A DNA stretch of 64,000 bases from Dehalococcoidia bacterium (lineage in GTDB: Bacteria > Chloroflexota > Dehalococcoidia > Lucifugimonadales > UBA3495): the NCBI GenBank assembly GCA_965203985.1, contig CBDBDS010000012.1:211907-275906 (forward strand), read 5' to 3'. The notes under the pieces are model-generated. The model saw only the letters and a list, made by a program, of their open reading frames with translations. It searched no databases and had not been told where the DNA came from. Shown here piece by piece: positions 14,427-56,161 of this stretch (position 1 is its first letter; every line of letters starts with the position of its first letter). Position numbers and translations under genes: made by a program.

Positions 14427-14804
14427 GTGATTACCCACGGCGTGAAGTGCCGCAAACCTGAAGACCATCTGAAAGCTGCTGACCTGGCGCTTGCAAATGG
14501 CGATTACGATACCGGATCGCTTCTCCTGTATCAGTCCGTAGAGTGTGCGTTGCAGCGACTGGCTGAAGCGTCAGGAATGCGCGTTGAATCAAGGTCGGAG
14601 TTCCGGGATTTCGCCGACCGGCTGGACCGCCAGTATGGACGTGATGGTTGGCACGCGCGTAAATTGCGGTTGGCAACCGTTTTCCGTGACAACGCCGCAC
14701 ACCATTTCGCGCCTTCGAACGATATCGTGCTCAGTTGGCCATCCGTTAGAGAGTTTGCCCAAGCGTTGATGGAGTACCAACCTGAGAACCTTGCGGATGG
14801 ATAA
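14427..14804 (+). CDS. HEPN/PaREP1-like helical protein (paralogue 1)
   Basis: An all-helical 125-aa protein with the same layout as the downstream PaREP1-like genes. It contains an R-x4-H motif (FRDNAAHHF). GTG start with AGGAGG 6 nt upstream. Confidence 0.45.
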   Translation: MITHGVKCRKPEDHLKAADLALANGDYDTGSLLLYQSVECALQRLAEASGMRVESRSEFRDFADRLDRQYGRDGWHARKLRLATVFRDNAAHHFAPSNDIVLSWPSVREFAQALMEYQPENLADG

Positions 14805-15171
14805 GATCGACCATTTGGCGGTGGCGGATCGCCTTAATCAATTGGCTGCAAGACTGCGGGCAGATGGCGATGACATCGCCATGGCGGAAATGCTGTGGGG
14901 AACCGTGAACCGCATCACCAACGCTTTAGCCCTTCAGCACGAGCTGGCCTATGGGAATAGCTACCCGCGGGGTGGCCGCGTCATCAGCCATCTTGTCACT
15001 CATCATTGCAACGACGCGGAGCTACAGGACAATTGGCTGTCAGCCAGTGCTTTGCACGGCCACTTTTACACCAGTCACCTTGAGCCTGCGAATTTGGCTG
15101 GGCACGTGCAAGATACGCAAAACCTGATCGACGAACTCCTGAAATTGTGCGATGCTTCTATTGACGAGTGA
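14797..15171 (+). CDS. HEPN/PaREP1-like helical protein (paralogue 2)
   Basis: Helical protein ending its third helix with ...ASALHGHFYTSHL (compare LHxNFY). ATG 14797 overlaps the upstream stop (ATGGATAA). Confidence 0.45.
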   Translation: MDKIDHLAVADRLNQLAARLRADGDDIAMAEMLWGTVNRITNALALQHELAYGNSYPRGGRVISHLVTHHCNDAELQDNWLSASALHGHFYTSHLEPANLAGHVQDTQNLIDELLKLCDASIDE

Positions 15172-15371
15172 ATAATGGACTCGCCAACGCCCCCCGGTGT
15201 GTCCGGATACGACGACGTAAAAGTCAGCGTCTCCATGCACTGCCTTAGTAACACCGTTGCTCAAGCAAGCGCCAGGCCAATATAGAAGTGTGCCGCCCTC
15301 CCAACAAAAAACGTCACTAACTGCCTTCTAAACCGATGGTCACGAGTGCGTAACAGTCCAGTCTCAATGGA

Positions 15372-15764
15372 ATGTCCCACTTCGCTCCATCATTCCAGAA
15401 ACCTCATGTCCACCGAGGCCACACGTTGTTCCGTTCGGCCTACCCCGCCAAAGACCGGCCCGCGTACATCACCCGCTACGTGTACGCCGACACCACGTTG
15501 TCCACCCACGGCGGGACTGCGGGCAAGGTCAGCGTCACCAGCGAGGAGCACACCCGCCTCCAGCAGATGGCCGAGTACCTCGAACGCTGCTGCAACGACC
15601 TTGACGCCGCCGGCTACGACGTCATCTCCATCACCCCCGTCATCAGCGGCCGCACCGCCTACACCCACACCGAGACCACCGACATCTACCCCGGCCACGG
15701 CTACAGCGTCACCGACGGCCTGGTCGTTACCGGCCGCCTCAAGTCCCTGGAGCCCAACCCATGA
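15372..15764 (+). CDS. Hypothetical small protein (start uncertain)
   Basis: Strong C/G third-position bias. The stop overlaps the ATG of the next gene (CCATGA). No family recognised. The alternative-frame 204-aa ORF looks like a low-complexity artefact. Confidence 0.55.
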   Translation: MSHFAPSFQKPHVHRGHTLFRSAYPAKDRPAYITRYVYADTTLSTHGGTAGKVSVTSEEHTRLQQMAEYLERCCNDLDAAGYDVISITPVISGRTAYTHTETTDIYPGHGYSVTDGLVVTGRLKSLEPNP

Positions 15765-16189
15765 CCCAATCCTCTCCCATCGAACCCTTCGACGAGCCGG
15801 CCGCAGCCATCGCCGACTATCGTCAGCAGGCCCGCGAGTTCCTGGCAAAAAGCCGTCAGTACCTGGCCGACGACGACCTGCACCAGGCATCCGAAAAAGG
15901 CTGGGGCGCCGCCGCGTGGATGGCCAAAGCCGTCGCCGATGCACAGGGCTGGGAATATAAAAGGCACGCCCAGTTCAACGTCGTAATGTATAGCGCCCAG
16001 GACTTCGCCGGCGATGCCAGATTAGACGGCCTCCGCGCTTTGGCCAGTGAACTGCACGGCTACTTGTACACCCGCAAGCTTCTTCTGCGCTCCGACGTGA
16101 TCAGTCGCGGGCTGGACCAGATGGGCGTCCTGTTGGACATCCTCGAACCCCTCACCGAAACCGACCGACACGCTGAAGGCGACCCATGA
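15761..16189 (+). CDS. PaREP1-family (HEPN superfamily) protein, tandem copy 1
   Basis: AREFLAKSRQYLADDDLHQASEKGWGAAAWMAKAVA...ELHGYLY matches my recollection of the archaeal PaREP1 signature (QASEKxWGAAA ... LHxNFY). Confidence 0.65.
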   Translation: MTQSSPIEPFDEPAAAIADYRQQAREFLAKSRQYLADDDLHQASEKGWGAAAWMAKAVADAQGWEYKRHAQFNVVMYSAQDFAGDARLDGLRALASELHGYLYTRKLLLRSDVISRGLDQMGVLLDILEPLTETDRHAEGDP

Positions 16190-16599
16190 CCCAATCCTCT
16201 CCCATCGAACCCTTCGACGTGCCGGCCACAGCCATCGCCGACTACCGTCAGCAGGCCCGCGAGTTCCTGGCAAAAAGCCGCCAGTACCTCGCCGAGGATG
16301 ACCTGCACCAGGCATCCGAAAAAGGCTGGGGCGCCGCCGCCTGGATGGCCAAGGCGGCTGCCGAGGCACAAGGTTGGCAGTACAAGAAGCACGATCAATT
16401 CAATGTAGTGCTGAACAATGCCCGTCTTTTGACTGGAGATGGACGACTGCCCGGGCTGCGTGGCATCGCCAACGACCTGCACACAAACTTTTACAAACGC
16501 AGGCTATTGCTGAACGCCGACGCCATTGCTGTAGACTTGGACCACATCTCTACCCTCCTCGACATCCTCGAACCCCTCACCGAAACCAGCACAACCTAG
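16186..16599 (+). CDS. PaREP1-family (HEPN superfamily) protein, tandem copy 2
   Basis: It has the same signature, including LHTNFY. The first ~150 nt and the last ~40 nt are nearly identical to copy 1 at nucleotide level, and the middle is diverged. Confidence 0.65.
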   Translation: MTQSSPIEPFDVPATAIADYRQQAREFLAKSRQYLAEDDLHQASEKGWGAAAWMAKAAAEAQGWQYKKHDQFNVVLNNARLLTGDGRLPGLRGIANDLHTNFYKRRLLLNADAIAVDLDHISTLLDILEPLTETSTT

Positions 16600-16608
16600 G
16601 AGATCCCC

Positions 16609-17637
16609 ATGACCAGCAGCGCAGAACGTCACGTCGAAACCGCCGACACCATCGAGGCCATCGAGGAGTGCTTCCGCCTCGGCTGGACTGACGGCCTCCC
16701 CGTCATCCCACCAGCCGATTACAAGGTCCGCGAGATGCTCTCCACCGCCGGCCTCACCGGCGAGGAGGAACTGCTCAACCTCGATATGCGCAGCCGCGTC
16801 ATCACCTCCGAGAACGCCGCCGCCAACGCGGTCATGGCCGGCTGCGAGGCCGAGTACTTCCCCGTGCTAGTCACCGCCCTGCGCACCCTCGAGGAAGAGC
16901 GCAACTTCGTCAACATGGCCGCTTCGTCCACCAGTTCGCCCAGTATCCTGATGGTGCTCAACGGCCCCATCCGCGAGCAGCTCGGCATCAACAGTCGTGA
17001 CGGCCTCTTCGGCCCCGGCTTCCGCGCCAACGCCAGCATCGGCCGCGCCGTCCGCCTCTGCTTCATGAACGGCTTCGACGCCTGGCCCGGCCAGCTCGAC
17101 CGCGGAACCCTGGGCACTCCGGCCAAGTACACCTTCTGCGTCGCCGAAAACGAGGAAACCTCCCCCTGGGAGCCGCTCCACGTCAGCCGCGGCTTCGACG
17201 CCTCCGACAGCGTGGTCACCGTCGCCGTCGCCTACAACCCGGTCAGCGTGCCGAACAGCTACGCCCACACCGGCCAGGCCATCCTCCTCTCCATCTGCGA
17301 CGCCCTCCGCTCCGCCGCCCTGGCCCATCGCTACCCCGCCCAGTGGGTCATCGTCATCGGACCCGAACACGCCCTGACCCTCCAGGGCGACGGCTGGACC
17401 CGCCGCGACATCCAGGACTTCCTCATTGAGAACAGCGGCCGCTCCCGTGCCGAACTCGTCCGCCTCGGTTCCAAGCAGGGCCCGGAACAACCCGGCGACG
17501 AAGAACTCATCATGCGCTGCGCCATCGACCCGAACGACATCCTCATCATGCACGGCGGCGGCACCGGCGGCCGCTACAGCGCCATCATCGACACCACCGG
17601 CTACCGCATCCGCACGCGCAAGATCGGCGGGGATTAG
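16609..17637 (+). CDS. Conserved hypothetical protein (342 aa), first gene of the selenoprotein-containing string
   Basis: AGGAG RBS and good coding bias. Motifs GWTDGLPVIPP and AANAVMAGCEAEYFPV. I cannot assign a family. Confidence 0.7.
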   Translation: MTSSAERHVETADTIEAIEECFRLGWTDGLPVIPPADYKVREMLSTAGLTGEEELLNLDMRSRVITSENAAANAVMAGCEAEYFPVLVTALRTLEEERNFVNMAASSTSSPSILMVLNGPIREQLGINSRDGLFGPGFRANASIGRAVRLCFMNGFDAWPGQLDRGTLGTPAKYTFCVAENEETSPWEPLHVSRGFDASDSVVTVAVAYNPVSVPNSYAHTGQAILLSICDALRSAALAHRYPAQWVIVIGPEHALTLQGDGWTRRDIQDFLIENSGRSRAELVRLGSKQGPEQPGDEELIMRCAIDPNDILIMHGGGTGGRYSAIIDTTGYRIRTRKIGGD

Positions 17638-17638
17638 C

Positions 17639-18460
17639 ATGACGACATCAGCCTTTCCAACAAGCCCGTTTCCAGGAATGAATCCTTACCTGGAAGACCC
17701 TGATCTTTGGCCGGGCATACACAAGACCTTTATCGCCGGTTTGCAGCGGCTCCTCAGTCCCCAATTGCGCCCCGATTACATGGTCCGGATTGAGGAACGG
17801 GTGTATGTATCCGACGAACCCAACGTCAGCGGGCAACGGCCCTTCCGCATACCCGACGTTATGATTGTGGACGAGGGTGGCGCCGCCGCCCGCGCCACCG
17901 CAATAGAGACGGAACCCCAACAAAACGAGGACGCCATCAACGTGGCGCTCCCTTCAGTTGAGCTGGAAAAAGACCGTTACCTGAAAATCATCAAGGTCAG
18001 CAATCGTGAGGTCGTTGCTGTAATCGAGCTGCTGTCGCCCTCCAATAAGACTGGCGATGGCCGCCAGGAATATCTGTCCAAGCGTGCCGAAGTGCAGTAC
18101 AGCCTTTCTCATTTGGTGGAAATCGACCTGCTGCGCTCCGGATCGCCCATGCCAGTCGTTGGAGACGTCCCCGGTGGCGACTACCGAATCCTGATTAGCA
18201 ATGCCCGGCTTGCGCCCGATGCGTCGCTGTACGTCTTTAGCATGCGCCAGCCGATACCCATCTTCGTCATGCCCCTGGCAGAAGGCTCCGAAGGCATAGC
18301 AATAGACCTGAAACCCGTCATCGACGAGGTGTACGTCCTCGGTTCCTACGACCGGGACATCGACTACTACCAGGACCCGGAACCGCCCCTCTCCGACCCC
18401 GACCGCGCCTGGATCGACCAACTCCTTCGCAATCAGGGGTTACGCAAACCGGCCCTTTGA
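17639..18460 (+). CDS. DUF4058 family protein (restriction-endonuclease-like fold)
   Basis: The N-terminus SPFPGMNPYLEDPDLWPGIHKTFI is the typical DUF4058 start. The ATG lies 1 nt after the upstream stop. Confidence 0.7.
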   Translation: MTTSAFPTSPFPGMNPYLEDPDLWPGIHKTFIAGLQRLLSPQLRPDYMVRIEERVYVSDEPNVSGQRPFRIPDVMIVDEGGAAARATAIETEPQQNEDAINVALPSVELEKDRYLKIIKVSNREVVAVIELLSPSNKTGDGRQEYLSKRAEVQYSLSHLVEIDLLRSGSPMPVVGDVPGGDYRILISNARLAPDASLYVFSMRQPIPIFVMPLAEGSEGIAIDLKPVIDEVYVLGSYDRDIDYYQDPEPPLSDPDRAWIDQLLRNQGLRKPAL

Positions 18461-18520
18461 CGGTACAATCCGCGCATATCGTTCATTCCGACCACACGCC
18501 CAAATCAACGGAGGTATCGC

Positions 18521-19081
18521 ATGACCACCGCCGAATCGAGCCGCCTCCGGCTCGTCAACCCCAAGGGCACCGAACTGCCCCAGACTGAGTTTCGCATGAA
18601 CGACCGCTCCGGCGGCTTGGCCGGCAAGCGCCTGGGCCTCATGGAGAACTCCAAGGCCAATGCCGACAAGCTCCTGATCGAGCTCGGCAATATCCTCAAC
18701 GAGCGCCACGGCTTCTCCGAGATCAAGTTCTACGACAAGGGCCACGCCAGCCTGCCCGCCAAGCAGGAAATGATCGACGAGATCTTGAGTGAGGTCGATT
18801 ACCTCATCACCGGGGTCGGAGATTGAGGGTCCTGCAGCTCGTGCAGTGTGCACGACGGAATCGACATGGAAAAGCGCGGCGTCCCCACCGCTGCCATCAT
18901 CACTCACGTCTTCCTCAACACGGCGCAGGCCATGACCCGCATGATGGGCGTGCCCGACTACCGCTACGTTGTCGCCCAGCATCCCCTGTCCAGCCTCACC
19001 GATGACGAGGTCAAGCAGCGTGCCGCCGACTTGGCCGACGAGGTGGAGTCCATCCTGACCGGCCAGCCTGTCGCCGCCTAG
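18521..19081 (+). CDS. UGSC-family / GrdB-C-terminal-like selenoprotein (predicted Sec at TGA 18824-18826)
   Basis: ORFs 18521-18826 and 18848-19081 share a frame and are separated only by one TGA. Read-through gives ...DYLITGVGD-U-GSCSSCSVHDGIDMEKRGVPTAAII... (UxxCxxC). Only the first ORF has an RBS (GGAGG). Confidence 0.75.
18839..18855 (+). promoter_or_regulatory. SECIS-like hairpin downstream of TGA 18824
   Basis: TCGTGCA-GTG-TGCACGA forms a 7-bp stem with a G-containing apical loop about 20 nt after the UGA. An alternative hairpin is CTGCA-GCTCG-TGCAG at 18832-18846. Confidence 0.45.
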
Positions 19082-19104
19082 CAACCCGCGCGTCGGAGTC
19101 GCCC

Positions 19105-19491
19105 GTGGCGTCTCCCGGCACGTCGCAACCGTCTCGCCTGCCCATCGACCCGGCCATCCGGCCCGGTCTGGCAGGCGAAACTCATTTGACCGTCGCCGCC
19201 GAACACCTCGCCCCGCATACGCCCAAGTTCAGCACCCCGGCCATGGTCATGCTCATGGAGCAGGCGTCGTACCAGGCGGTCCTGTCCCTGCTCCACCCTG
19301 CCCAGACCGTTGTCGGCTACGAGGTCAACGTCAAGCACCTCGCCCCGGCTGACGAGGGTTCAATCGTCACCGCCCGTTCCATCCTTACCGACGTGTCCGG
19401 CAACAAGCTCCGCTTCGAAGTCGAAGCCCACCACGGCGACGTCCTCCTCGGCACTGCTGAACATAAAATGGCCATAGTGCCAACCCAGTGA
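19105..19491 (+). CDS. Hotdog-fold thioesterase (FlK-like/4HBT-like)
   Basis: ...THLTVAAEHLAP...FSTPAMVMLMEQASYQAV...VGYEVNVKHLAPADEG fits the hotdog thioesterase pattern. GTG start with GGAG 6 nt upstream. Confidence 0.7.
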   Translation: MASPGTSQPSRLPIDPAIRPGLAGETHLTVAAEHLAPHTPKFSTPAMVMLMEQASYQAVLSLLHPAQTVVGYEVNVKHLAPADEGSIVTARSILTDVSGNKLRFEVEAHHGDVLLGTAEHKMAIVPTQ

Positions 19492-19504
19492 CCGTCTTAA
19501 TACC

Positions 19505-19543
19505 CAATCATCCCGTCCATCCTGTGCATCCATGCCAAACCGG
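19505..19543 (+). repeat. C-rich/G-poor dispersed intergenic repeat, copy B
   Basis: CAATCATCCCGTCCATCCTGTGCATCCATGCCAAACCGG lies 14 nt after the thioesterase stop. Confidence 0.6.
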
Positions 19544-19577
19544 CCGCATCTCGAGCGGTTAGTATCAGGAGGCCATC

Positions 19578-20144
19578 ATGTCCTGGATCCGAGAAACCGA
19601 CGTCGCCGTCCCCTCGGTGATCAGTTGCATGTCCATCAACCCCGACCTCATGGCGGCGGTCCAGAACCTTAACGCCAAGGCGACCTTCGGCTCGTCCGCC
19701 CTAACCCGCACCCAGGAGGAAGCAATCGCCACCGTGGTCTCCCTGGTCAACCGCTGCCGGTATTGAGCCGTCGCCCACGGAGGGTTCCTCCGTCAACACT
19801 CCGGCGACCCCGAGTACTCCAGCCACATCATCCACGACTACACCCTGGCAGACCTGGACCCGCAGACTCGCGCCATCCTCGATTACGCCGTCAAGCTCAC
19901 CCTGACCCCGGCAGCGATGACCGAAGCCGACATTAGTACCCTCCGCACTGTTGGCCTCACCGACGAGCAAATCCTGTCCACTGTCGCCATCACCTGCGTC
20001 TTCAACTTCATGAACCGCTTAGCCGATGGCCTCGGCGTCGAAATCCCCGAAGGCCGCGAGGCCATCATGGGCCAGTGGCTCTCCGACGCTGCCAAGCAAG
20101 CCCAGGACTGGCTCCTGTCCCCGGACGCCGTTGCCGTCTCCTGA
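19578..20144 (+). CDS. AhpD-like / carboxymuconolactone decarboxylase-family selenoprotein (predicted Sec at TGA 19764-19766)
   Basis: ORFs 19578-19766 and 19917-20144 share a frame, and the 150 nt between them are stop-free with coding bias. Read-through gives ...VSLVNRC-R-Y-U-AVAHGGFL..., which is the family motif N-x-C-x-Y-C-x-x-x-H with the second Cys replaced by the TGA codon. AGGAGG RBS at 19578 only. Confidence 0.8.
19770..19808 (+). promoter_or_regulatory. SECIS-like two-tier hairpin downstream of TGA 19764
   Basis: The outer stem is GTCGCC/GGCGAC (19770-75 / 19803-08). The inner stem is ACGGAGG-GTT-CCTCCGT (19777-19793). The apical loop G lies about 18 nt after the UGA. Confidence 0.55.
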
Positions 20145-20168
20145 GCCGCGGGTACTACGTCGACTGTT

Positions 20169-20196
20169 ATTGCCAGGCGCAAAGCGCCGTGGCAAT
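20169..20196. repeat. REP-like/terminator hairpin of the GGCAATCTCGCC family
   Basis: ATTGCCA-GGCGC-AAA-GCGCC-G-TGGCAAT followed by CTCGCC, 25 nt after the AhpD-like stop. Related copies lie at about 21242-21270 and 21310-21352. Confidence 0.5.
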
Positions 20197-20253
20197 CTCG
20201 CCAGCCGGGCCACCGCCGACAATTCCAGCCAACCCAACCACCCGGAGGTCCCC

Positions 20254-21081
20254 ATGACACTCCTACCATCCGGTCGTCCCCGTCTCCAGGACAAGGTCGC
20301 CATTGTCACCGGCGCCGGCTCCAGCGGCCCCGGCGTCGGCACGGGCAAAGCCGCTTCCATCCTGTTCGCTCGTGAGGGCGCTCGCGTCCTGCTGGTTGAT
20401 CGCAACCTTCAGGCCGCGGAGGAAACCCTCGCCATCATCCACGAGGAGGGCGGCGAGGCCTCGGTAATCGCCGCCGACGTCACCTCTGCTGCCGACTGCG
20501 AGGCCATTGTTGACGCTGCCGTGGAACGCTACGGCGCGTTGCACATCCTTTTCAACAATGTCGGCATCACCGGTCCCGGCACGCCTACCGATGTCGACGA
20601 ATCCGTCTGGGACAACGTCCTCGACGTGAACCTCAAGAGCATGATGCTCACCACCAAGTACGCCGCCCCCAGGATGATCGACGCCGGTGGCGGGAGCATC
20701 ATCAACATGTCCTCCATCGCCGGCGTCCGCGCCGGCAGCGGCCTGGCCAGCATCCCTTATTCCGCCTCCAAGTCCGGCGTCATCGGCATGTCCGAGACCA
20801 TGGCCGTCCACCTCGGCCGCGACAACATCCGGGTCAACGTCATCGCCCCCGGCCACATCTACACTCCCATGGTCGCCGGCGCCATGGCCGATGAAACCCG
20901 CGAAAACCGGCGCAAGGCCGGCCCTCTCGGGGTCGAGGGCAATGCCTGGGACATCGCCTATGCCGCGCTCTTCCTCGCCAGTGATGAGGCTCGTTGGGTC
21001 TCCGGCGTCGTGCTCCCCGTCGATGCCGGCCTCCTCGCCGCTACTCCCCTCGCCATGTACAACCGCATCCGCGACGAGTGA
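20254..21081 (+). CDS. SDR family oxidoreductase
   Basis: The cofactor motif VAIVTGAGSSGPGVG and the catalytic YSASKSG (YxxxK) are present. ATG 20254 has GGAGG 5 nt upstream. The ORF-track start at 20026 overlaps the upstream gene. Confidence 0.85.
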   Translation: MTLLPSGRPRLQDKVAIVTGAGSSGPGVGTGKAASILFAREGARVLLVDRNLQAAEETLAIIHEEGGEASVIAADVTSAADCEAIVDAAVERYGALHILFNNVGITGPGTPTDVDESVWDNVLDVNLKSMMLTTKYAAPRMIDAGGGSIINMSSIAGVRAGSGLASIPYSASKSGVIGMSETMAVHLGRDNIRVNVIAPGHIYTPMVAGAMADETRENRRKAGPLGVEGNAWDIAYAALFLASDEARWVSGVVLPVDAGLLAATPLAMYNRIRDE

Positions 21082-21111: not shown

Positions 21112-21352
21112 ATTCCGGCGAAAGCCGGAATCCAATGACTGAAATCGCTAAACATTGTCGGTTTCAGTCGCCATACCGACGCAGGACTCCTGCTTTCGCA
21201 GGAGTGACGGGGGTGTGGGTTCAAGTGCGTAACTCCTATGCCATTGCGAGCGCAGCGCGGCAATCTCGCCAACGGAGCAATGCCCCGCCATGCGCTGCCG
21301 TCTTTCATGTCATTGCGTCCCCGCGCTTGATGCGGGGGGCGGCAATCTCGCC
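21112..21352. repeat. Cluster of REP-like hairpin elements
   Basis: Successive hairpins: ATTCCGGC-GAAA-GCCGGAAT (21112-31), GACTGAAA...TTTCAGTC (21137-68), ACTCCTGC-TTTC-GCAGGAGT (21186-205), and two ATTGC...GGCAATCTCGCC units. Spurious ORFs here read IPAFAGMT / SGESRNP. Confidence 0.55.
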
Positions 21353-22125: not shown

Positions 22126-23367
22126 TCAGTAAATCACCCCCGCTTCTTCCAACCGCTCGATCTCGCTGTCCGGCATCCCCAGCAACTGCCCGAACACGTA
22201 AGCATTGTCCTCGCCGATGTTGCTGTACTTGCCGAACGGTATCGGCGATACCGACATCTTCGCCGGTATCGACCACGAGACGCTCTCTCCCTCCGTCCAT
22301 TCCGTCGCCTTCACGCCCCGTTCAGCTTCCCAATACTGCGTGTCCTGGTAAAACTCCCGCGATTGCAGGTGCGCGTTTTCGTTCAGGTCCTGCCCCTGCG
22401 ACACCATCCCGGCCGGCACTCCTGAGGCTTGCAGCTTTTCCATCAGGGCCAGCGATTCGTGCTGGCGTGTCCACTCCGCGATGCCTTCGTCCATCGCGTC
22501 TTCGTTGCGCCGTCGACCCAATCGGGTTTCGTACTCGGCCGCCGCCGCCCATTCCGGATCGCCCATCGCCTTGCGGAGCCGTCCCCACTGCTCGTCGTCT
22601 GAAACCGCGATGGCAATGTACCGGTCCTCTCCCGCGCACGGGTACACGTTGTGCGGCGCCGCCCAGGCGTCCTGGTTGCCCCGGCGTTGCGGACCCCGCC
22701 CGTTCACCTGGTAATCCAGCAGCGCCGGCCCGCCGGTGGCTACTCCCGACTTGAAGATCGACGACTCCAGCGTCGCCGTCTTCCCGGTCAGGTTCCGCCG
22801 CATCAACGCCGCGATGATCCCCGCCGGCTGGAACACCCCGGTGTGGTAGTCCGAGTACGAGGTGTTGACCACACCCGGCGGCTCGTCCGGCAACCCGGTC
22901 ATCAACGAGACCCCGGAAAGGTGCTGCACCAGTATCCCGAAGGACTTGTAGGTATAGTAAGGCCCGTGACCTCCCAGACCGGTCTGCCACATGATGATCG
23001 CGTCCGGCCTCTGCTTGCGGATTTCCGGGAAATCAATGCCCCATCGGTCCAGCACGTTCCGCCTGAAGTTGGTCATGAACACGTCGCTGATCCGCACCAT
23101 CTCCAGCATCAGGTCCCGCCCCGCCTCGGTCCGAACGTCCAGCGTGATCCGCCGCTTGCCCCGCTGGTACTCCGGCTGGCCCGCTCCCCGGGACCAAGCC
23201 GGTATGAACGACATCTCGTCCAACACCTTGTTCGTCTCAACCTTGATCACCTCCGCCCCGAGAGAACCCAGGATCCTCCCCGTCAGCGGCAGCGCCACGT
23301 AAGGCCCGAACTCGACCACCCGTATGCCCGCCAACGCCGATGGCGTGTCGGAAGTGAATCCGGTCAT
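22126..23367 (-). CDS. Family III CoA-transferase (CaiB/BaiF family)
   Basis: The N-terminus LAGIRVVEFGPYVALPLTGRILGSLGAEVIKVE and the overall length are typical of CaiB/BaiF. Confidence 0.85.
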   Translation of the reverse strand: MTGFTSDTPSALAGIRVVEFGPYVALPLTGRILGSLGAEVIKVETNKVLDEMSFIPAWSRGAGQPEYQRGKRRITLDVRTEAGRDLMLEMVRISDVFMTNFRRNVLDRWGIDFPEIRKQRPDAIIMWQTGLGGHGPYYTYKSFGILVQHLSGVSLMTGLPDEPPGVVNTSYSDYHTGVFQPAGIIAALMRRNLTGKTATLESSIFKSGVATGGPALLDYQVNGRGPQRRGNQDAWAAPHNVYPCAGEDRYIAIAVSDDEQWGRLRKAMGDPEWAAAAEYETRLGRRRNEDAMDEGIAEWTRQHESLALMEKLQASGVPAGMVSQGQDLNENAHLQSREFYQDTQYWEAERGVKATEWTEGESVSWSIPAKMSVSPIPFGKYSNIGEDNAYVFGQLLGMPDSEIERLEEAGVIY

Positions 23368-23372
23368 GGTTC

Positions 23373-24059
23373 CTACTCCTCGTTGTGCCGGTCAAAAATC
23401 AGGCTACGCACCGCAAAACTGAATCCCGGCAGCAAATCCTCGCCTGAAAGGGTCTCAGGGTTCTCCAGGATTTCAGGCTCGGCCTGCCCGGCCCGGTAGA
23501 CATAAGCCCGACGCTGTCGCGCGTCGATCCCCCAACCGAGTGTTGCGCCGCCCTCCATCCATTCCTGCATCTTGGCCAAAAATGGCGGGAGACGGTCGGT
23601 GCGAGAACGGATTTCGACCACGAAGTCAGGCGCGCCATGTATGGTTCCACGCCGCTCAATGGCGGTCAGGTTATCGTATCGTTCTCGTGTAATCCAGGCA
23701 GCATCGGGAATGCGCTGCGCCCCGCTGGGCAAGCGGAACCCGACGGTTGGACCGTAGCTCATACCTCCGTTGCCGCGATGCCAAACATACAGTTCACCGC
23801 TAGCTACGGCTTCTTCTCGGCTACTTTCCGAACCGGGTGGCGGCATGATTATCAACTCTCCTTGCGCAGAATACTCAAACTGCCAAGGTGGGTTATCAGT
23901 GGAAAGCTGACACAACCGCTCTCCGAAGTCGGGAGCCAGGTGGTCAACACCCAGGGCAGATAAGTTGAGACGGAACTCACCTGTCAGCGGCCAATCCGCT
24001 GCCGGTTCTGAGTCGTCTGGAGGAGCGATTAACGTCGGCTCCGGTTTGACTGTAACCAT
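23373..24059 (-). CDS. Uma2 family (DUF820) endonuclease-like protein
   Basis: ...GELIIMPPPGSESS...PDAAWIT...APDFVVEIRSRTD...KMQEWMEGGATLGWGID fits the Uma2 pattern. Confidence 0.75.
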   Translation of the reverse strand: MVTVKPEPTLIAPPDDSEPAADWPLTGEFRLNLSALGVDHLAPDFGERLCQLSTDNPPWQFEYSAQGELIIMPPPGSESSREEAVASGELYVWHRGNGGMSYGPTVGFRLPSGAQRIPDAAWITRERYDNLTAIERRGTIHGAPDFVVEIRSRTDRLPPFLAKMQEWMEGGATLGWGIDARQRRAYVYRAGQAEPEILENPETLSGEDLLPGFSFAVRSLIFDRHNEE

Positions 24060-24087: not shown

Positions 24088-25335
24088 CTAGATTATTCCA
24101 TCCATCTGCAACGCGGCCAACTCTGCCGCAGTCAAGCCCAGCTCACCCTGGTACACCGCCATGTTGTCCGCCCCCAACGCCGGCGCCGGCCGGCGCCGCG
24201 CCGATACTTCCTCGCTGTGGAATATCCCCAGCGGATACTTGATCGTTCCGATTGACCCATCCTCGTGCTCAATGTCGTACCAGAACCCCGACTCCGCCAG
24301 CTGCGGGTCGGCCAGCAGGTCGGCAACCTCGTTCACCGGCAGGAAAACCAGGTTCCGCCGCTGACCCTCGTGGAACAACTCCTGCACCGTGAAGTTTTCC
24401 GCAAACTCCAGGAACAGCGCGGTGATGATGTCGATGTGCTCGGCCCGGTCCTGGTTCCCGCCCCGGTACGCCTCGTTGAGCACCTCGTCGTTACCGGTCA
24501 CCTCGTGGATCCATTCTGCCAGCGCGTCCCATTCCCGCGGCGTGATGACCCCGGCCGCAATCCAGCCGTCCTTGCACGGATACGCCCCCAGCGGGATGAC
24601 CAGCGTCGAGTTGGTGCCCACCCTAGTCACGTTCTGCCCCAGCTTTCGCCACAGCAGCGCCGGGTGCGCGTCCGTGTAGTAGGTGATCAGCGCCTCCTGC
24701 GACGACACGTCAATGTGCTGTCCCACGCCGCCGTCGGCGAAATCACGGTAATACAGCGCCGCCAGTATCCCCACCGCCGCGTACTGCGCTCCGGGATAGT
24801 GGCTGTGCTCGTTGCCCTGCCGCACCGGCGGTTCGTCCGGCTCGCCCGTGATCTGCATGTATCCGCTCGCCGCCATCACCACTAGGTCGTCGCCCGCGTA
24901 ATCCGCCCATTCGCCGGTGGATCCGAACGGCGTTACCGACGCCATCACCAGCCCCGGGTTGTCGGTCCTTAGGTCGTCGTATCCAATACCTCTGTCGGCG
25001 AGGTAGTGCCGGCCGTAGCTCTCGATGATCACATCGGCGTCCGCAGCCAGACGCCGGAACAGCCGTCGCCCCGCCTCGGTCTCCAAGTCTAGCGTGATTG
25101 ATCGCTTGTTGGTGTTGTAAAACAGGAAATCTAGGCTTTGCTCGGCGTCCGGCGTGTCCCCGGGATATGGCCCCAGCGTCCGCGAGCGGTCCCCCGATGG
25201 CGGCTCCACCTTCACCACGTCCGCGCCGTAGTCCGCCAGCAGCCGGCCGCAGAACGCCGCCCGTCGGTCGGTCAAATCCAGGACCCGGTAGGGAGGTATC
25301 AGGTGCTCGCCGGTATATTCGTCGAACCGAGGCAT
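24088..25335 (-). CDS. Family III CoA-transferase (CaiB/BaiF family)
   Basis: YRVLDLTDRRAAFCGRLLADYGADVVKVEPPSGD is a typical CaiB/BaiF N-terminus. It is a paralogue of 22126-23367. Confidence 0.85.
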   Translation of the reverse strand: MPRFDEYTGEHLIPPYRVLDLTDRRAAFCGRLLADYGADVVKVEPPSGDRSRTLGPYPGDTPDAEQSLDFLFYNTNKRSITLDLETEAGRRLFRRLAADADVIIESYGRHYLADRGIGYDDLRTDNPGLVMASVTPFGSTGEWADYAGDDLVVMAASGYMQITGEPDEPPVRQGNEHSHYPGAQYAAVGILAALYYRDFADGGVGQHIDVSSQEALITYYTDAHPALLWRKLGQNVTRVGTNSTLVIPLGAYPCKDGWIAAGVITPREWDALAEWIHEVTGNDEVLNEAYRGGNQDRAEHIDIITALFLEFAENFTVQELFHEGQRRNLVFLPVNEVADLLADPQLAESGFWYDIEHEDGSIGTIKYPLGIFHSEEVSARRRPAPALGADNMAVYQGELGLTAAELAALQMDGII

Positions 25336-27286: not shown

Positions 27287-28726
27287 ATGCTGACCAGGTT
27301 GGAAGTCAACGGATTCAAAAACCTTGTGGATTTCTCCCTGGACTTCGGGCCGTACACCTGCATCGCGGGCCCGAATGGAGTCGGCAAATCCAACGTATTC
27401 GATGCCATCCGCTTCCTCTCTCTGCTCACGGAACACACCATAAACGATGCGGCGCTGCAAATCCGCAACGCCGGCGAGGAAACCGGCGATATCGCTGACT
27501 TGCTTTTTTACGGTTGCGGCGAAAGGACAGACCGGATGGAATTCGCCGCGGAGATGATAGTCAGCGAAAGCGTGCGCGATGATTTCGGTCGGGAAGCCAA
27601 AGCGTCTTCATCATTCCTGCGTTACGAAGTCGCCTTCCGCTACGAACCGCCGTCACCAACCGGCGGTCTTCTGGGCGGCTTGGCTCTGGAACGGGAAGAA
27701 TTGCGGCCCATCATCACCGGACATGCGGCCCGGCATCTGAAATTCCCCCACAGCAAGAGCAAGTTTCGCGATAGCGTGGTATACAACAACCGCCACGCCC
27801 GCAGCGGATTCATATCCACCCAAATCGATCCGGAAACCGAACAGGCCGCCATTGTGGTGCACCAGGACGGGGGCTCCCACGGGCGAGGTCGGCCATCTCC
27901 GGCGCGAGGGGCAACGCGCACTATCATCGGCACCGAAAATACCTCCGCCACTCCGACGATACTGGCGGCCCGCCGGGAAATGCAGAGCTGGCGTGTCCTG
28001 GCCCTCGACCCGGCTGCCATGCGCCGCCCCGACCGTTACACGCAGCCCCCTGGCATCGCTGCCAACGGGGCGCACATAGCGGCGACTCTGCAACACCTGA
28101 CGAATGTTGCCGAGGAATCCGGGGAACGTCCCGATGTCGTCCTCCAGATGGTATCCATCATTTTGTCGGAACTCGTTCCCGTCTACATGGTCAAAGTAGT
28201 CAAGGATGACGTGCGGCAACTCCTGTCGTTGCAGGTGGAAGAACAATCGGGAATCAAACTCCGCGCCAACTCCATCTCCGACGGCACGCTGCGATTCCTG
28301 GCATTGGCGACGATGACCGAAGTGGTTGACGAAAGTGCAGTGATTTGCATCGAAGAGCCGGAGAATGGCATTCATCCGGCTAAGATGGAAGCCATACATC
28401 GCCTGTTGGATGACCTGGCGGTCAACCCGCATGAACCTGTTGACACTGAAAACCCAATGCGACAGGTAATAGTCGCAACCCACTCACCCTACTTCGTGCA
28501 GCTACAAAACAAAGAAGACTTGGTACTGGCGAAACCACGCATGGCTCGCTCCAGGTCAGGAGCGCTGGTAGAGCATCTGGTGCAGTGTCAACCCTACCAC
28601 GGAACTTGGCGCTGTTCCAATGAACGAGAAGGAATGAACCTGCTTTCGCTGCAATCTTACCTGATGCCTCCGAAAACGGCGCAAATCGCTTTCCCAAGGG
28701 AGTTCTGGGAATCGGTATGGCGATGA
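27287..28726 (+). CDS. ABC/OLD-type AAA ATPase (AAA_15/AAA_21-like)
   Basis: MLTRLEVNGFKNL...IAGPNGVGKSN (Walker A), SDGTLRFLAL (signature-like), VICIEEPENGIHP (Walker B/D-loop) and VATHSP (H-loop). Confidence 0.8.
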   Translation: MLTRLEVNGFKNLVDFSLDFGPYTCIAGPNGVGKSNVFDAIRFLSLLTEHTINDAALQIRNAGEETGDIADLLFYGCGERTDRMEFAAEMIVSESVRDDFGREAKASSSFLRYEVAFRYEPPSPTGGLLGGLALEREELRPIITGHAARHLKFPHSKSKFRDSVVYNNRHARSGFISTQIDPETEQAAIVVHQDGGSHGRGRPSPARGATRTIIGTENTSATPTILAARREMQSWRVLALDPAAMRRPDRYTQPPGIAANGAHIAATLQHLTNVAEESGERPDVVLQMVSIILSELVPVYMVKVVKDDVRQLLSLQVEEQSGIKLRANSISDGTLRFLALATMTEVVDESAVICIEEPENGIHPAKMEAIHRLLDDLAVNPHEPVDTENPMRQVIVATHSPYFVQLQNKEDLVLAKPRMARSRSGALVEHLVQCQPYHGTWRCSNEREGMNLLSLQSYLMPPKTAQIAFPREFWESVWR

Positions 28727-33048: not shown

Positions 33049-33897
33049 ATGAGCCTGGAAGGTAAAGTCGCTTTGATTACCGGCGCCGGCGGGATGCGCG
33101 GTGTCGGCCGCGCCACCGCTCTGAAATTGGCGTCCCAGGGCGCCCACGTCGCCATCACCGACGTGCGCCGGCCCGCGGAAGATCTGCCCCCCGGTGAGGT
33201 CCGCGCGGAGTGGCAGTCCATCGACAGCGTTGCCGAAGAGGTCCGCGCCCGGGGCAGTCAGGCCCTGCCCGTTTATGCGGACCTGTCCAACTCTGATGAG
33301 ATTGAAGGGCTGGTGGCCGAGACCGTAAACCACTATGGCCGCCTGGACATCCTCGTCAACAATGCCCGCGCCATCATCGGTCGGGACAAGGTTCCAGTCA
33401 CCGAATTGGACGAGGACGTATGGCAGCATTTCCTCACTATCAACACCACTGCGGTTTTCCTGTGCACCAAGTACGCCGGTCGCGAGATGGTCCGCCTGGG
33501 CAACGGCGGGCGCGTGGTAAACATCGCCAGCAACGCCGGCAAACAGGCCAGCGCCGATGGAGCCGCCTATTCAGCCAGCAAGTTCGCCGTGATTGGTTTG
33601 ACCCAGGCCTCGGCCATGGATCTCGCTCCCCACGGCATCACCGTCAACGCCGTCTGCCCGGGACCCATCAACACCGACCGCATGAGTTACTGGGAACGCG
33701 ATCAGGCGGCTGAACGAGGGTTGACCCAGGAAGAGTTTCGCGCCCAGGTGGTCGCCTCATCTGCCGACCGTACGCCGCTGGGCCGTATCGCCGAAGCGGA
33801 AGACGTTGCCAACTTGGTGGCGTTCCTGGCCGGACCTGATTCGAGCCTGATCACCGGCCAGTCCTACAACGTCAACGGCGGCATACTGTTTCACTGA
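33049..33897 (+). CDS. SDR family oxidoreductase (FabG-like)
   Basis: ALITGAGGMRGVGRA, NNAR and AYSASKFAV (YxxxK). Confidence 0.85.
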   Translation: MSLEGKVALITGAGGMRGVGRATALKLASQGAHVAITDVRRPAEDLPPGEVRAEWQSIDSVAEEVRARGSQALPVYADLSNSDEIEGLVAETVNHYGRLDILVNNARAIIGRDKVPVTELDEDVWQHFLTINTTAVFLCTKYAGREMVRLGNGGRVVNIASNAGKQASADGAAYSASKFAVIGLTQASAMDLAPHGITVNAVCPGPINTDRMSYWERDQAAERGLTQEEFRAQVVASSADRTPLGRIAEAEDVANLVAFLAGPDSSLITGQSYNVNGGILFH

Positions 33898-53296: not shown

Positions 53297-54850
53297 TCAG
53301 TCGTTACCCGCCGTCCTCGGCTGTGGCTCGGCAGCTATCGGCGGTCGCGGGACGGCGGAGCGGTTGGACAGCGCGCGGTAGAAGGCAATCGCCGCTCCTG
53401 TGGCGAGCGCCGCGCCCAACATCAAAAACGCCCAACGCAGCCCGGCGACGAACGCCGTTGCCACCTCGGGATTAACCGCCTCAAGCTTGGGCTCCACTCC
53501 GTAGGTTGCCATGGTCGACACCACGACGGTGGTGGACACGGCGACGCTGACCACGTTCGCCGAGTTCCTGACTAATTGGGTCAGCGCCGAAACCACCCCA
53601 TATCGGCTACGGTCCACCACGCTGAGAATGCTGCTGCTGTTGGGGGAATTGAAAATTCCATTGCCCGAGCTCTGCATCATCATGGTGGCGATGACCAGCC
53701 AAACCGGGGACCGCTCCTGGAGCGCAAAGGGCCAGGACAAAAGCCCCCGCCGCGGTCAACGCCATGCCGCACACTGTCGGGACCCGCCATCCGAAACGAT
53801 CAGCCACGCGGCCGCTGAACGGCCCGATCAGCACCATGCACACCGCTGGCGGGATCATCATCAACCCTACCTGCTCCGGTGAATATTGCAGCACGCGCTG
53901 CAAGTAGAATGGCATCATGAAACGCGCAGCCGACGAACCGAAGAACGACAACCACGCCGCGGCAACCCCCAGCCCGAATATCTGGTTGGTGAACAGCCGC
54001 AGGTCCAGCATCGGCGCGCGGACTCTCAGCTCCCACCAGATGAAACCTGCCATCAGGACCGCCACCGCGACAACACCCACGATGACCGGGGTGGACAACC
54101 AGCCCAACCCGTTGCCATTGCCTACCACCAGCAAAAGAACGAGGAGTATCACTCCGGAAACCGCGGCACCGGTCCAATCGAATGAGGACGCTCCTTGCCC
54201 CCGGTGGTACTGACCCGCACCCGGACCTCGTTCCAGCAGGAGCCATGCGAGCACCAGCACCAGGCCGCCCGCCGGAACATTGATGTAAAACACCGATTGC
54301 CAGCCGAACCACGCCACGAGGAAGCCACCCACGGCCGGACCGGCGATCGCTCCCATTCCTACGACGCTGAGGTGTGTGCCCAGGGCCTTGCCACGCTCAG
54401 AGTCTGGGAAGGCCGCGATCATCATGCCCATGCCGCAGCCCTGGACCATGCCTGCTCCTACCCCCTTCAAGACGCGCATTACAACCAGCATCTCGAGGCT
54501 GGTAGAAAGCGCGGCGCCCAGCGAAGCGAAGACGAAGATTGCCGTGCCCGTCACGTAGACCCTGCGTCGACCAACGACATCACCCAGACGACCCATGGGC
54601 AGCAGGAGAACGCTGATTACCAACGCGTACGCGACCACCACCCACTGAACCGATTCCAACGACGCGTCGAAATGGGACTCGATGCCGGGCAGCGCCACGA
54701 GCACGCTGCCGTGATCGACCACCGAGAAAAATGTGCCGGCGGCTATGGTCCAGAAAGCCCACCATTTATAGGACTCGCTGGACGTTATGCGTTGGATCAA
54801 CTGCGTGACTGCCTGGGACCGGACCGTGCGGCGAATAGGATGACCATCAT
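53297..54850 (-). pseudogene. DHA2-type (14-TM, EmrB-like) MFS transporter with apparent frameshifts near both ends
   Basis: The MFS body is read in the frame of the 864-aa ORF. An RBS+ATG (AAGGAGTATGATG, 54850) is out of frame with that body. The C-terminal ~145 aa continue in another frame (ORF 53297-53740), with the shift near 53715-53750. Confidence 0.6.
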
Positions 54851-54874
54851 ACTCCTTTCGGAAACCTGACGCTG

Positions 54875-56150
54875 CTACTCCTTGGTGACCGGGGCCATCA
54901 GGCCAAACGCCGCACGCGGCCCAGCACAAACCCAGCATACCGCCGAAGCGCCGAGGCCGAGAACCGCAATCATTGCCATGGCCGTGGACGACGATGTCAC
55001 GTCTGAGAGGATTCCGACACCCAGGCTTGCCACGACCAGGAATCCCCGATCCAAAGCTCTGCAGGCTGGTCATGCGTCCGCGCAGGCTGTCCGGCGCCAA
55101 GGTCTGAATTAACGTGCCGCGGGCGGTCCGGAAAACTGCCTGGCTGAATGCCATAGCCGCGATGAAAAGGAATGCCAGTGCCATCCACTTGGAAAAAGCG
55201 AAAACCAGTAGCGTGGCGGAACTGCCGACGGCTGCTCCCAGCACCACCTTCCCCTTCGGGAATATGAACCCGAATGTGGCCATCATGAGCGCCGCCAGCA
55301 GGCCTCCGACGCCGGTCACTGCCAACAGATAGCCGCCCACGTCGGCGTCTCGATGCAACACCTCGGTAGTGAACACGGGAAACAGGAACCACGAAGGGTG
55401 CAGGATGATATTGGGAATGATCGACAAGATCATCAGTTGGAAGAAGGCTCGTTCCCCACTCCAAACGTAGCGCAGTCCTTCGATCATGTTGGACATCGCC
55501 GATCCGCGCTGGCGGGCATTTCCTGGCGTGTGGAACGGAGTGCGCAGCCTGAAGATCATCAGGACGTTCACCAGGTAGAGGCACGCTTCGATAGTGAAGT
55601 TCCAGAAGAACCCCAGAGTGAAAATCAGGATTCCGCCGACAAACGGGCCAACGGTTCGTGTACCCGTGATGGTCAACACGTTGGTGGCCAGCGCGTTCCC
55701 GAGCATCTCCCGGGGAACGGTGCCGGCGATCAACGCCTGGCGCATGGGCTGGACTGTAGAGTGACAGCAGCCCGCGAGTATCACGTACAGGTAGGCATGC
55801 CAAATCTGCACCTTTCCGGTCAGGATCAAAAGCGCGAAAGCCAAGGCCAGCACCGCCATCGCAGTCTGGAGGGCCATGACCAACTTGCGCCGGTCGAACC
55901 GGTCGCTCAGCACGCCGCCCCAGGGTCCAACCACCAGGCCGGGCAGCGTATTGATTCCGCCCACCGTGACCACCAACAATCCGGCTACGTTTGAGCCTTC
56001 GGATAACTCCCGGACCAGCCAGCCCACGCTCAGCAATTGCAGCCATTGAGCGTTGTTGGCAAAGAAATTGCCGAACCACAGGTACCGGAAGTCCCGGTAA
56101 GCAAGCCAGGCGTCCAGCGTGTGCAGGCGTGGCAACCGTGCGGTTCGCAA
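54875..56150 (-). pseudogene. MFS transporter (paralogue of 56162-57352) with a 1-nt frameshift near 55053-55058
   Basis: After ...RGRMTSLQ the paralogue-like sequence ALDRGFLVVASLGVGILSDVTSSSTAMAMIAVLGLG... continues in another frame to TAG 54875-77. The TTG start at 56150 is preceded by GAGGGA. Confidence 0.6.
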
Positions 56151-56161
56151 ACGGCTCCCTC

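Follow-up and report, generated by a model that had tools for sequence, protein, structure and literature searches.

The stretch of DNA analysed here, referred to as the window, comprises 64,000 nucleotides of contig CBDBDS010000012.1 (assembly GCA_965203985.1) from a Dehalococcoidia bacterium of the SAR202 type. Between positions 16609 and 21081 it carries six co-oriented genes on the plus strand, which encode, in order, a 342-amino-acid protein that we call A342, a DUF4058 protein, a UGSC-family selenoprotein, a hotdog-fold thioesterase, an AhpD-like selenoprotein and a short-chain dehydrogenase/reductase (SDR) (Table 1). A preliminary description, made from the sequence alone, had proposed that these genes form an operon for a new selenocysteine (Sec)-dependent reductase, an interpretation that our analysis supports in part. 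We find that the locus is a genuine instance of a widespread and uncharacterised selenoprotein system, and that the core of this system consists of two genes, A342 and UGSC, and not of six. The layout itself is as first described: all six genes are present, AGGAG, GGAGG or GGAG boxes lie 6-8 nt 5' of five of the six starts, and the ATG of the DUF4058 gene follows the A342 stop codon by 1 nt. The intergenic gaps measure 1, 60, 23, 86 and 109 nt in order, and a search for terminator-like sites on the plus strand in the interior of the cluster found none. The A342 proteins of two related loci (L001 and L002) are 99% identical to that of the window, and the same cluster, 96-97% identical, is found in SAR202 bin87 from the sponge Aplysina aerophoba (L005).

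Table 1. Features of the gene cluster and its 3' flank (positions in the 64-kb window)
Feature	Position	Strand	Description
A342	16609-17637	+	342 aa; motifs GWTDGLPVIPP and AANAVMAGC both found
DUF4058 gene	17639-18460	+	PF13267, E = 9.6e-79, 264.8 bits over full model length
UGSC-family selenoprotein	18521-19081	+	186 aa, Sec102 within D-U-G-S-C; PF24696 and NF041046
UGSC in-frame TGA (Sec102)	18824-18826	+	context ITGVGD-U-GSCSSCS
UGSC SECIS-like hairpin	18838-18856	+	UCGUGCA-GUG-UGCACGA; 7-bp stem, loop 19 nt past UGA
Hotdog-fold thioesterase, FlK-like	19105-19491	+	GTG start; PF22636, E = 2.9e-25
AhpD-like selenoprotein	19578-20144	+	188 aa, C60-R-Y-U63; TIGR01926, also PF02627
AhpD-like in-frame TGA (Sec63)	19764-19766	+	context NRC-R-Y-U-AVAHGG
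AhpD-like SECIS-like hairpin	19777-19793	+	ACGGAGG-GUU-CCUCCGU; 7-bp stem, loop 17 nt past UGA
Classical SDR	20254-21081	+	PF13561 and PF00106; VTGAGSSGPG and YSASK motifs
Three short inverted repeats	21112-21205	+	directly 3' of SDR stop; possible transcription-unit end
Two family III (CaiB/BaiF) CoA-transferase genes	22126-23367, 24088-25335	-	PF02515; possible pathway context
Uma2-family putative restriction endonuclease gene	23373-24059	-	PF05685; between both CoA-transferase genes

Both in-frame TGA codons behave as Sec codons. When all six frames of the window were scanned for an in-frame TGA with coding-type GC content at third codon positions (GC3) on both sides, only those at 18824 and 19764 interrupted a gene; a further hit, at 33895, marks the normal end of a gene whose successor happens to share its frame. 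TGA also serves as the normal terminator of the DUF4058, thioesterase, AhpD-like and SDR genes. At the Sec position of UGSC the aligned codon is TGA in 68 of 68 genes from related genome loci, including those of Tectomicrobia and Betaproteobacteria at about 35% protein identity, and in 78 of 78 genes from diverse metagenome loci; for the AhpD-like gene it is TGA in all 40 genes of related genome loci. Cysteine codons (TGC or TGT) occupy the Sec position of UGSC in Arthrobacter, Roseovarius and two haloarchaea, the motif-keeping plasmid records other than that of Paracoccus. Downstream of each UGA lies a hairpin resembling a Sec insertion sequence (SECIS), with a 7-bp stem and a three-base apical loop starting with G. 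The seven core pairs of the UGSC hairpin are 100% paired across 22 distinct sequences, with compensatory changes from C-G to G-C in 10 sequences and from U-A to G-U in one, and its covariation score was reached by none of 500 shuffles. Likewise, synonymous sites inside the UGSC stem are invariant across phyla, and flanking synonymous sites vary. The AhpD-like hairpin is invariant within its clade and hence offers no covariation to score. The two recoded genes first noted at this locus are therefore confirmed; clusters of selenoprotein genes are already known from the literature.

Could the two TGAs instead be true stops, pseudogene lesions or assembly errors? Gene callers end the UGSC family at about 102 amino acids, most database entries terminating at the Sec codon as the preliminary description had anticipated, and neither sel genes nor tRNA-Sec were found in the 64-kb window, nor tRNA-Sec in 2.1 Mb of related loci. 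Against this explanation, about 186 independent genes have TGA at the corresponding codon, conserved coding sequence of high GC3 lies on each side of it, Cys codons take its place in Arthrobacter, Roseovarius and the two haloarchaea, and the hairpin accumulates compensatory changes. In addition, bin87, to which L005 belongs, is credited in its published COG table with three SelA, one SelB and one SelD. We regard the explanation as already effectively refuted.

Which genes of the cluster belong together? The six proteins were searched by tblastn against 79 related genome loci, and UGSC lies within 10 kb of A342 in 69 of them; it follows A342 in Dehalococcoidia and Tectomicrobia and directly precedes it in Betaproteobacteria and in L068. 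Three of the ten UGSC-less loci (L012, L052 and L054) end near the A342 gene. A scan of metagenome contigs with a degenerate pattern derived from the A342 alignment yielded a further 80 loci, at 36-71% identity, and 73 of these have a UGSC-family gene next to A342 in the same orientation; contig ends account for most of the seven misses. Of 150 sequences that represent 50%-identity clusters, 24 are fusions of the two proteins, with both domain orders seen, and many of the fusion entries stop exactly at the Sec codon. The AlphaFold2 (AF2) model of one natural fusion, P0162, has a pLDDT of 92.4, a pTM of 0.92 and a low-confidence linker; a pTM this high despite the poor linker suggests confident packing of the two domains against each other. 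Some genomes possess a second, paralogous pair, as exemplified by L050/L068, L069/L072 and L070/L071. The neighbourhood check foreseen in the preliminary description thus upholds its pairing of the 342-amino-acid and UGSC proteins, by synteny in either order and by fusion. A342 is a near-obligate partner of UGSC across bacteria and haloarchaea, and the conserved unit is this gene pair and not the six-gene block. As a separate observation, UGSC-like partners that have neither Sec nor Cys occur in Variovorax SRS16 (L176, 7195-7584), in Vibrio europaeus (L174, 5344-5754) and in P0157.

A342 itself has no Pfam or NCBIfam match, with Pfam searched up to E <= 10, and 56 diverse relatives (57 members with the A342 of the window) have no Pfam match at E <= 1. 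The family comprises 4364 clusters at 50% identity at E <= 1e-3, of which 896 have E <= 1e-30, and its members are labelled 'hypothetical protein' throughout RefSeq. The earlier expectation that standard annotation would miss the system consequently holds for A342; it does not hold for UGSC, for which an NCBI model exists and which RefSeq names. Sequence searches of the PDB with A342, with a profile of 57 A342 sequences and with UGSC returned nothing meaningful. The AF2 model of A342 (pLDDT 94.6, pTM 0.92) found no convincing counterpart in the PDB by Foldseek, the best fold matches being Toblerone-fold cyclic amide hydrolases (E ~1e-3), followed by YjgF-like proteins and chorismatases. The Toblerone, YjgF and PurM-like matches are too weak (TM ~0.2) and were not used to assign a function. 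Residue conservation was counted among the 150 cluster representatives, where Asp28 is present in 141 of 141 sequences, Gly78 in 148 of 148, Cys79 in 142 of 148, Arg146 in 148 of 148, Glu180 in 147 of 150 and His254 in 124 of 142; in the 57-sequence alignment Asn141 is invariant and Cys177 is conserved in at least 90%. Formation of a pyruvoyl group at Gly78-Cys79 was considered and set aside: where Cys79 is replaced, the residue is Ala, Trp or Val rather than Ser or Thr, and this speaks against a pyruvoyl-forming site throughout the family. Tandem double-A342 chains of about 710-740 amino acids also exist (P0122, P0123, P0125, P0128, P0130, P0141, P0224 and locus L085).

The UGSC protein of the window passes the curated cutoffs of both family models, PF24696 (194.6 bits against 25, E = 1.9e-57) and NF041046 (154.9 bits against 125), the latter being the NCBI equivalog 'UGSC family (seleno)protein'. 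Across the family as a whole, the motif is D-U-G-S-C. The 'UxxCxxC' pattern of the preliminary description is present in the window, as D-U-G-S-C-S-S-C, and its second half is clade-specific. Since 2007 UGSC has figured among the selenoproteins whose function is unknown, and the 2008 Global Ocean Sampling (GOS) paper (Zhang & Gladyshev) assigned it a 'likely Trx-like fold' and reported its fusion to an unnamed domain, 'Unknown_1'. 'Unknown_1' is probably A342; searching the GOS supplements for A342 motifs gave none. In the AF2 model of the P0162 fusion, the UGSC domain is predicted to adopt a flavodoxin-like three-layer fold and not a thioredoxin fold; its fold matches are lumazine synthase, flavodoxin-like proteins, PurE and MdaB/NQO1 (E 6e-5 to 1e-2).

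UGSC had also been likened to the Sec-bearing C-terminal module of protein B of the glycine, sarcosine, betaine and proline reductases. We compared it by hhalign with PrdB/GrdB-type sequences that the GOS supplement and a database search provided. UGSC residues 90-159 align to the Sec-bearing segment of GRDB-family proteins over 63 columns, the two Sec residues coinciding (79 and 80 sequences; Prob 77%, P = 1.9e-5), and controls with a reversed sequence and with UGSC against A342 reached 0.2% and 0.5%, respectively. The likeness is in register and of modest strength, and remote homology of UGSC and the GrdB/PrdB Sec module is plausible but not established. On a side note, short PrdB/GRDB selenoproteins of SAR324, Tectomicrobia and other lineages (L166-L171, P0320-P0439) stand alone, with no PrdA, GrdE or A342 neighbours, and most of their database entries end at Sec or show W, R or G there; in P0334, G-S-C directly follows the Sec-aligned residue, which is called Gly. 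The orphan PrdB-like selenoproteins of SAR324 and related lineages were checked as partners of A342 or PrdA and are not paired with either.

The surroundings of the pair in other genomes point to redox chemistry. In P0243, A342 is fused to a low-Mr thioredoxin reductase (TrxR) with a CAVC motif, and at the same locus a Sec-type UGSC lies upstream and an epimerase/3-beta-hydroxysteroid dehydrogenase (3-beta-HSD) family gene and an SDR lie downstream. An Arthrobacter plasmid has the order trxB-trxA-A342-UGSC, with trxA and A342 overlapping by 4 nt. In Roseovarius THAF8 a LysR gene is followed by A342-UGSC-trxB, next to a TRAP transporter and a CaiB/BaiF CoA transferase, and in Variovorax SRS16 the order is trxB-TctC-SDR-A342, followed by a UGSC-like gene. 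TrxR-like genes are also found near the pair in Paracoccus versutus and in two metagenome loci. Bacterial genomes carry one to few copies of trxB; eight TrxR-like genes in about 0.9 Mb of non-close loci are thus far above that density. Among other fusions, a peroxiredoxin-like (AhpC/TSA) domain is joined to A342 beside a Sec-type UGSC, and NifU-like domains are joined to UGSC.

Recurrent neighbours include solute-binding proteins and transporters of the TctC, TRAP, ABC and MFS types, LysR regulators, and dehydrogenases, among them SDRs, a luciferase-like monooxygenase and a 2-hydroxy-acid dehydrogenase that depends on FMN, and family III CoA transferases flank the pair in Roseovarius, Halalkalicoccus and Natrinema. 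Clustering the neighbours of the 80 metagenome loci revealed no universal third partner, only small and heterogeneous groups. Phosphosulfolactate synthase (ComA-like) genes lie within 2-3 kb of the pair in Arthrobacter (L172, 3710-4498) and Natrinema (L173, 2889-3356), and the fused gene of Vibrio europaeus has an enolase gene directly after it. These neighbours possibly hint at a substrate related to phosphoenolpyruvate or to sulfonates; the ComA-like gene occurs in these two loci only and does not recur in the others compared.

The remaining genes of the cluster have a different standing. Between A342 and UGSC, zero, one and two copies of the DUF4058 gene are present in about 22, 21 and 9 close-relative loci, respectively; copies in the syntenic relatives (L001-L063) are arranged in tandem and are 53-78% identical to that of the window, whose GC3 is 0.69 as compared with 0.79-0.90 for the neighbouring genes. 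Because of its variable copy number and lower GC3, the DUF4058 gene is an insertion that lies outside the system, contrary to its earlier inclusion in the cluster, and it is probably selfish. Its behaviour is that of a mobile or selfish gene with repeated insertions into this operon.

The thioesterase (PF22636, 88.8 bits against a cutoff of 27; PF03061, 34.2 against 20.6) and the AhpD-like protein (TIGR01926, 133.3 bits against 81.8; TIGR00778 core domain, 39.1 against 27.8) score above the cutoffs of their family models. A close clade of 53 Dehalococcoidia (SAR202) loci, in which A342 is at least 90% identical, was compared with 119 other loci. Within the close clade the pair is accompanied by the thioesterase in 47 of 53 loci, by the AhpD-like gene in 41 and by the SDR in 43. 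Outside it, neither the thioesterase nor the AhpD-like gene occurs in any of the 119 loci, and the co-occurrence of the AhpD-like family with A342 and UGSC anticipated earlier is not seen there. Even within the clade, the AhpD-like gene is missing from L021, L031, L035 and L037, and L046 and L047 keep A342-UGSC without thioesterase, AhpD-like gene or SDR. An SDR adjoins the pair also in L080 and Variovorax and lies about 4 kb off on a Halalkalicoccus plasmid, and hence recurs at a few distant loci. Of the parts first assigned to the system, the thioesterase, the AhpD-like protein and the SDR may be clade-specific accessories or mere neighbours.

What, then, does the pair do? Given the Sec recoding, the A342-UGSC linkage, the fusions and the association with TrxR, all of them observed directly, we hold with fair confidence that A342-UGSC is a two-subunit, sometimes fused, TrxR-fed selenol/thiol reductase for what is probably an imported organic acid or CoA ester. 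A reductase role, as proposed in the preliminary description, is plausible in view of the TrxR fusion and trxB adjacency. The selenoproteins themselves are not new, the UGSC and AhpD-like families both having been catalogued and described in 2005-2008. As to the chemistry, the direction of electron flow and the class of substrate, we infer a scheme in which UGSC would be a small flavodoxin-like protein that presents Sec102 and Cys105 of the D-U-G-S-C motif as a selenol/thiol pair where a beta-strand ends, and that would dock on A342 or be fused with it. A342, the proposed catalytic or substrate-binding subunit, would supply the substrate site through its near-invariant Cys79 together with Asp28, Asn141, Arg146 and Glu180. 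Sec102 might attack the substrate, or an oxidised group carried on A342, Cys105 would resolve the Sec102 adduct to a selenenylsulfide, and this in turn would be re-reduced by a TrxR-type flavoprotein with NAD(P)H, either directly or via thioredoxin. From the neighbours (TctC, TRAP, ABC, LysR, CoA transferases and SDRs), the substrate may be an imported organic acid handled as its CoA ester. The variable transporter, CoA-transferase and dehydrogenase contexts, together with the multiple paralogues, suggest that the family has diversified for different imported organic acids or CoA esters. In the window, the AhpD-like selenoprotein could replace TrxR, and processing of the substrate could fall to the thioesterase, SDR and CoA transferases, roles that the comparative data do not demand. 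A bolder reading, which we put forward tentatively, makes A342 the catalytic subunit of an unrecognised and widespread enzyme class with a new fold, in which UGSC would serve as a dedicated, TrxR-fed redox arm for reductive bond cleavage of imported organic acids or CoA esters; such a class would parallel the Stickland glycine and proline reductases while being aerobic and independent of a pyruvoyl group.

Several observations weigh against a TrxR-fed reductase as the general function of the pair. TrxR genes adjoin the pair in a minority of loci, and no trxB is adjacent to A342-UGSC in the window. In four loci, which belong to a clade with A342 72-75% identical, UGSC is absent within 10 kb. 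Some UGSC-like sequences with neither Sec nor Cys (for example, ADMGTSVMT and AEIGGSLFG) are still paired or fused with A342, so that the redox pair is not always required; some members can do without the redox arm, or else these domains are non-catalytic paralogues. Cys177 of A342 is not universal, being Phe in P0162. Thinner alignments of UGSC and the GRDB family (8 and 9 sequences) keep the same register with a Prob of 10% and P = 0.003, and the Pfam GRDB model (PF07355) has no match to UGSC even at E <= 10. The 60-nt segments following the two UGAs are no more stable than shuffles (z = +1.9 and -0.8), and the case for SECIS elements is made by position, conservation and covariation, not by the folding energy of these segments. 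Lastly, a 2026 review lists UGSC as a protein of function unknown.

In the full reading of the preliminary description, the five genes other than DUF4058 would constitute one pathway, with A342 and UGSC as the reductase, the AhpD-like protein as its dedicated redox partner, and the thioesterase and SDR acting on an acyl-thioester or carbonyl substrate or product. The gene order kept in most close-clade loci, the short gaps, the ribosome-binding sites and the lack of an internal terminator speak for such a pathway, as do the SDRs and CoA-handling genes that recur beside the pair in distant lineages; moreover, with no trxB nearby, the window would need another reductant. However, given the losses with A342-UGSC retained and the absence of thioesterase and AhpD-like gene outside the clade, the conserved order could reflect plain vertical inheritance, and we consider a five-gene pathway possible and rather doubtful. 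A toolkit reminiscent of peroxide defence is likewise found around the pair, namely the AhpC/TSA fusion, the TrxR fusion and adjacency, the 'peroxidase-related' AhpD-like selenoprotein of the window and the NifU-like domains fused to UGSC, and in the reviewed literature most bacterial selenoproteins are redox proteins. The pair might accordingly be an antioxidant or redox-homeostasis device, such as a hydroperoxide, sulfoxide or disulfide reductase or a repair enzyme, and not a catabolic enzyme. Yet several genomes hold multiple paralogous pairs, and the pair sits in clusters with transporters, LysR regulators, CoA transferases and dehydrogenases, features typical of substrate-diversified catabolic enzymes and not of housekeeping defence, which makes a defence role unlikely.

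It is also conceivable that A342 is not a redox enzyme at all, and is instead a hydrolase, lyase or isomerase built of YjgF- or Toblerone-like modules, with UGSC as a structural or regulatory subunit whose Sec would be non-catalytic for the main reaction. The best fold matches of A342 (cyclic amide hydrolases, then YjgF-like proteins and chorismatases) and the existence of UGSC-like partners with neither Sec nor Cys are in line with this, but the matches are weak (E ~1e-3, TM ~0.2, rmsd > 12 A), the retention of Sec in 78 of 78 metagenome genes argues for a chemical role, and TrxR fusion and adjacency indicate redox chemistry; we judge such a function quite improbable. Finally, the profile-profile alignment that sets the Sec segment of UGSC against GrdB/PrdB-family proteins, together with the G-S-C that follows the Sec-aligned residue in some PrdB-like proteins (Gly in P0334), raises the idea of a divergent glycine/sarcosine/betaine or D-proline reductase (Grd/Prd) with UGSC as its protein B selenoprotein. 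This is very hard to reconcile with the other data. The Pfam GRDB model does not match UGSC, and the 57 A342 members have no match to Gly_reductase-type (GrdE/PrdA) models. In agreement with the preliminary description, GrdA, GrdC, GrdD, PrdA and GrdE-type genes are found neither among the six genes nor in their flanks nor among the other scanned genes of the window. The Ala, Trp and Val that replace Cys79 in a minority of A342 proteins, in place of Ser or Thr, speak against it as well. A TrxR-fed selenol/thiol reductase remains the reading that we prefer.

Around the cluster, the window shows a number of further features. The inverted repeats at 21112-21205 are perfect or near-perfect (ATTCCGGC/GCCGGAAT, GACTGAAATCG/CGGTTTCAGTC and ACTCCTGC/GCAGGAGT); the first of these hairpins was considered as a member of a repetitive extragenic palindromic (REP) family, and its single occurrence in the window indicates no obvious REP family here. 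Directly 5' of A342, positions 14427-16599 of the plus strand hold a run of small genes, with PaREP1-family (HEPN-like) genes at 14791-15171, 15761-16189 and 16186-16599 and interleaved, unassigned small open reading frames (ORFs) at 14427-14804 and 15372-15764. Similar genes are found 5' of A342 in related loci and resemble filler of the toxin-antitoxin type. The Uma2 gene on the minus strand (23373-24059) is another small nuclease-like insertion within a metabolic cluster, and at 27287-28726 (plus strand) an AAA_21/AAA_15 ATPase gene of the AbiEii type, with an SMC_N-like N-terminus, lies amid metabolic genes; such ATPases are typical of defence or toxin-antitoxin modules. At 53607-56201 (minus strand) an 864-amino-acid ORF contains two MFS domains (MFS_3 and MFS_1) and is overlapped by 40 nt by a third MFS_3 gene (56162-57352, minus strand). 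The double-MFS ORF is either a genuine fused tandem transporter or the product of a missed stop or frameshift.

Regardless of its exact chemistry, the pair changes how UGSC can be approached. UGSC almost never occurs without A342, is often part of one polypeptide with it, and repeatedly has TrxR attached or adjacent; near-constant pairing, fusions and the TrxR link turn an orphan selenoprotein into a defined and testable two-component system. With respect to the literature searched, the near-obligate pairing of A342 and UGSC in bacteria and haloarchaea and the recurrent link to TrxR are new, as are the modelled flavodoxin-like fold of UGSC and its apparent in-register likeness to the GrdB/PrdB Sec segment. 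In addition, A342 is brought to attention as a large protein family with neither a Pfam or NCBIfam model nor a solved relative. Cultured carriers are known, which makes genetics and biochemistry feasible: Paracoccus versutus has a Sec-type UGSC, Arthrobacter sp. ERGS1:01 and Roseovarius sp. THAF8 have a Cys-type UGSC with trxB alongside, and the haloarchaea Halalkalicoccus and Natrinema have the Cys type. Should A342 indeed define an enzyme class, this class would occur in haloarchaea as well as bacteria, number thousands of sequence clusters, be present in genomes as several paralogues each, and explain the place of UGSC among the most abundant selenoproteins of the ocean. For the window, the practical lesson is that the apparent operon is composed of a core pair, clade-specific neighbours and an inserted DUF4058 gene.

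How does the system relate to those already known? The third gene is a full member of the UGSC family of Zhang & Gladyshev (2007/2008), with an in-frame TGA and a downstream hairpin, and what is added here to the published family is the flavodoxin-like model, the near-obligate A342 partner and the TrxR link. The fifth gene belongs to the AhpD-like TIGR01926 'peroxidase-related enzyme' selenoproteins in their known C-x-x-U form; the gene itself is nothing unusual among them, and its linkage to A342-UGSC is limited to one clade. Toblerone hydrolases (AtzD/TrzD and barbiturase) resemble A342 in length and give the best, though weak, Foldseek matches, but with a TM-score of 0.17-0.22, an rmsd of 12-14 A, an identity of 8-11% and no Pfam support, the match is no evidence that A342 belongs to that fold.

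Two groups of reductases come closer in their manner of working. The thioredoxin/TrxR-dependent reductases, of which Msr, ArsC, PAPS reductase and the peroxiredoxin/AhpD systems are established examples, share with UGSC-A342 the U/C-x-x-C redox pair and the adjacent or fused trxB or trxB-trxA; UGSC, however, is not predicted to have a thioredoxin fold, and A342 resembles none of these enzymes. GrdB/PrdB and UGSC have in common a Sec in U-x-x-C straight after a beta-strand; a helix comes next, then a strand with E...G-(V/I)-P-T and the motif HP(L). GrdB or PrdB with GrdE or PrdA can, moreover, be likened to UGSC with A342, two subunits of which the non-Sec partner is encoded next door, and both would be reductases, the present one by inference. 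In contrast, UGSC lacks the N-terminal part of about 150 amino acids of GRDB, A342 has neither similarity to GRDB nor a Gly_reductase match, and the hosts of A342-UGSC include aerobes and haloarchaea and not Stickland fermenters alone; no solved GrdB or PrdB structure is present in the PDB. By GRDB profile, pyruvoyl partner and GrdA, GrdC and GrdD genes, A342-UGSC falls outside the Grd/Prd reductases, and by the modelled fold of UGSC it falls outside the thioredoxin-fold proteins; it may nevertheless work in a way similar to both.

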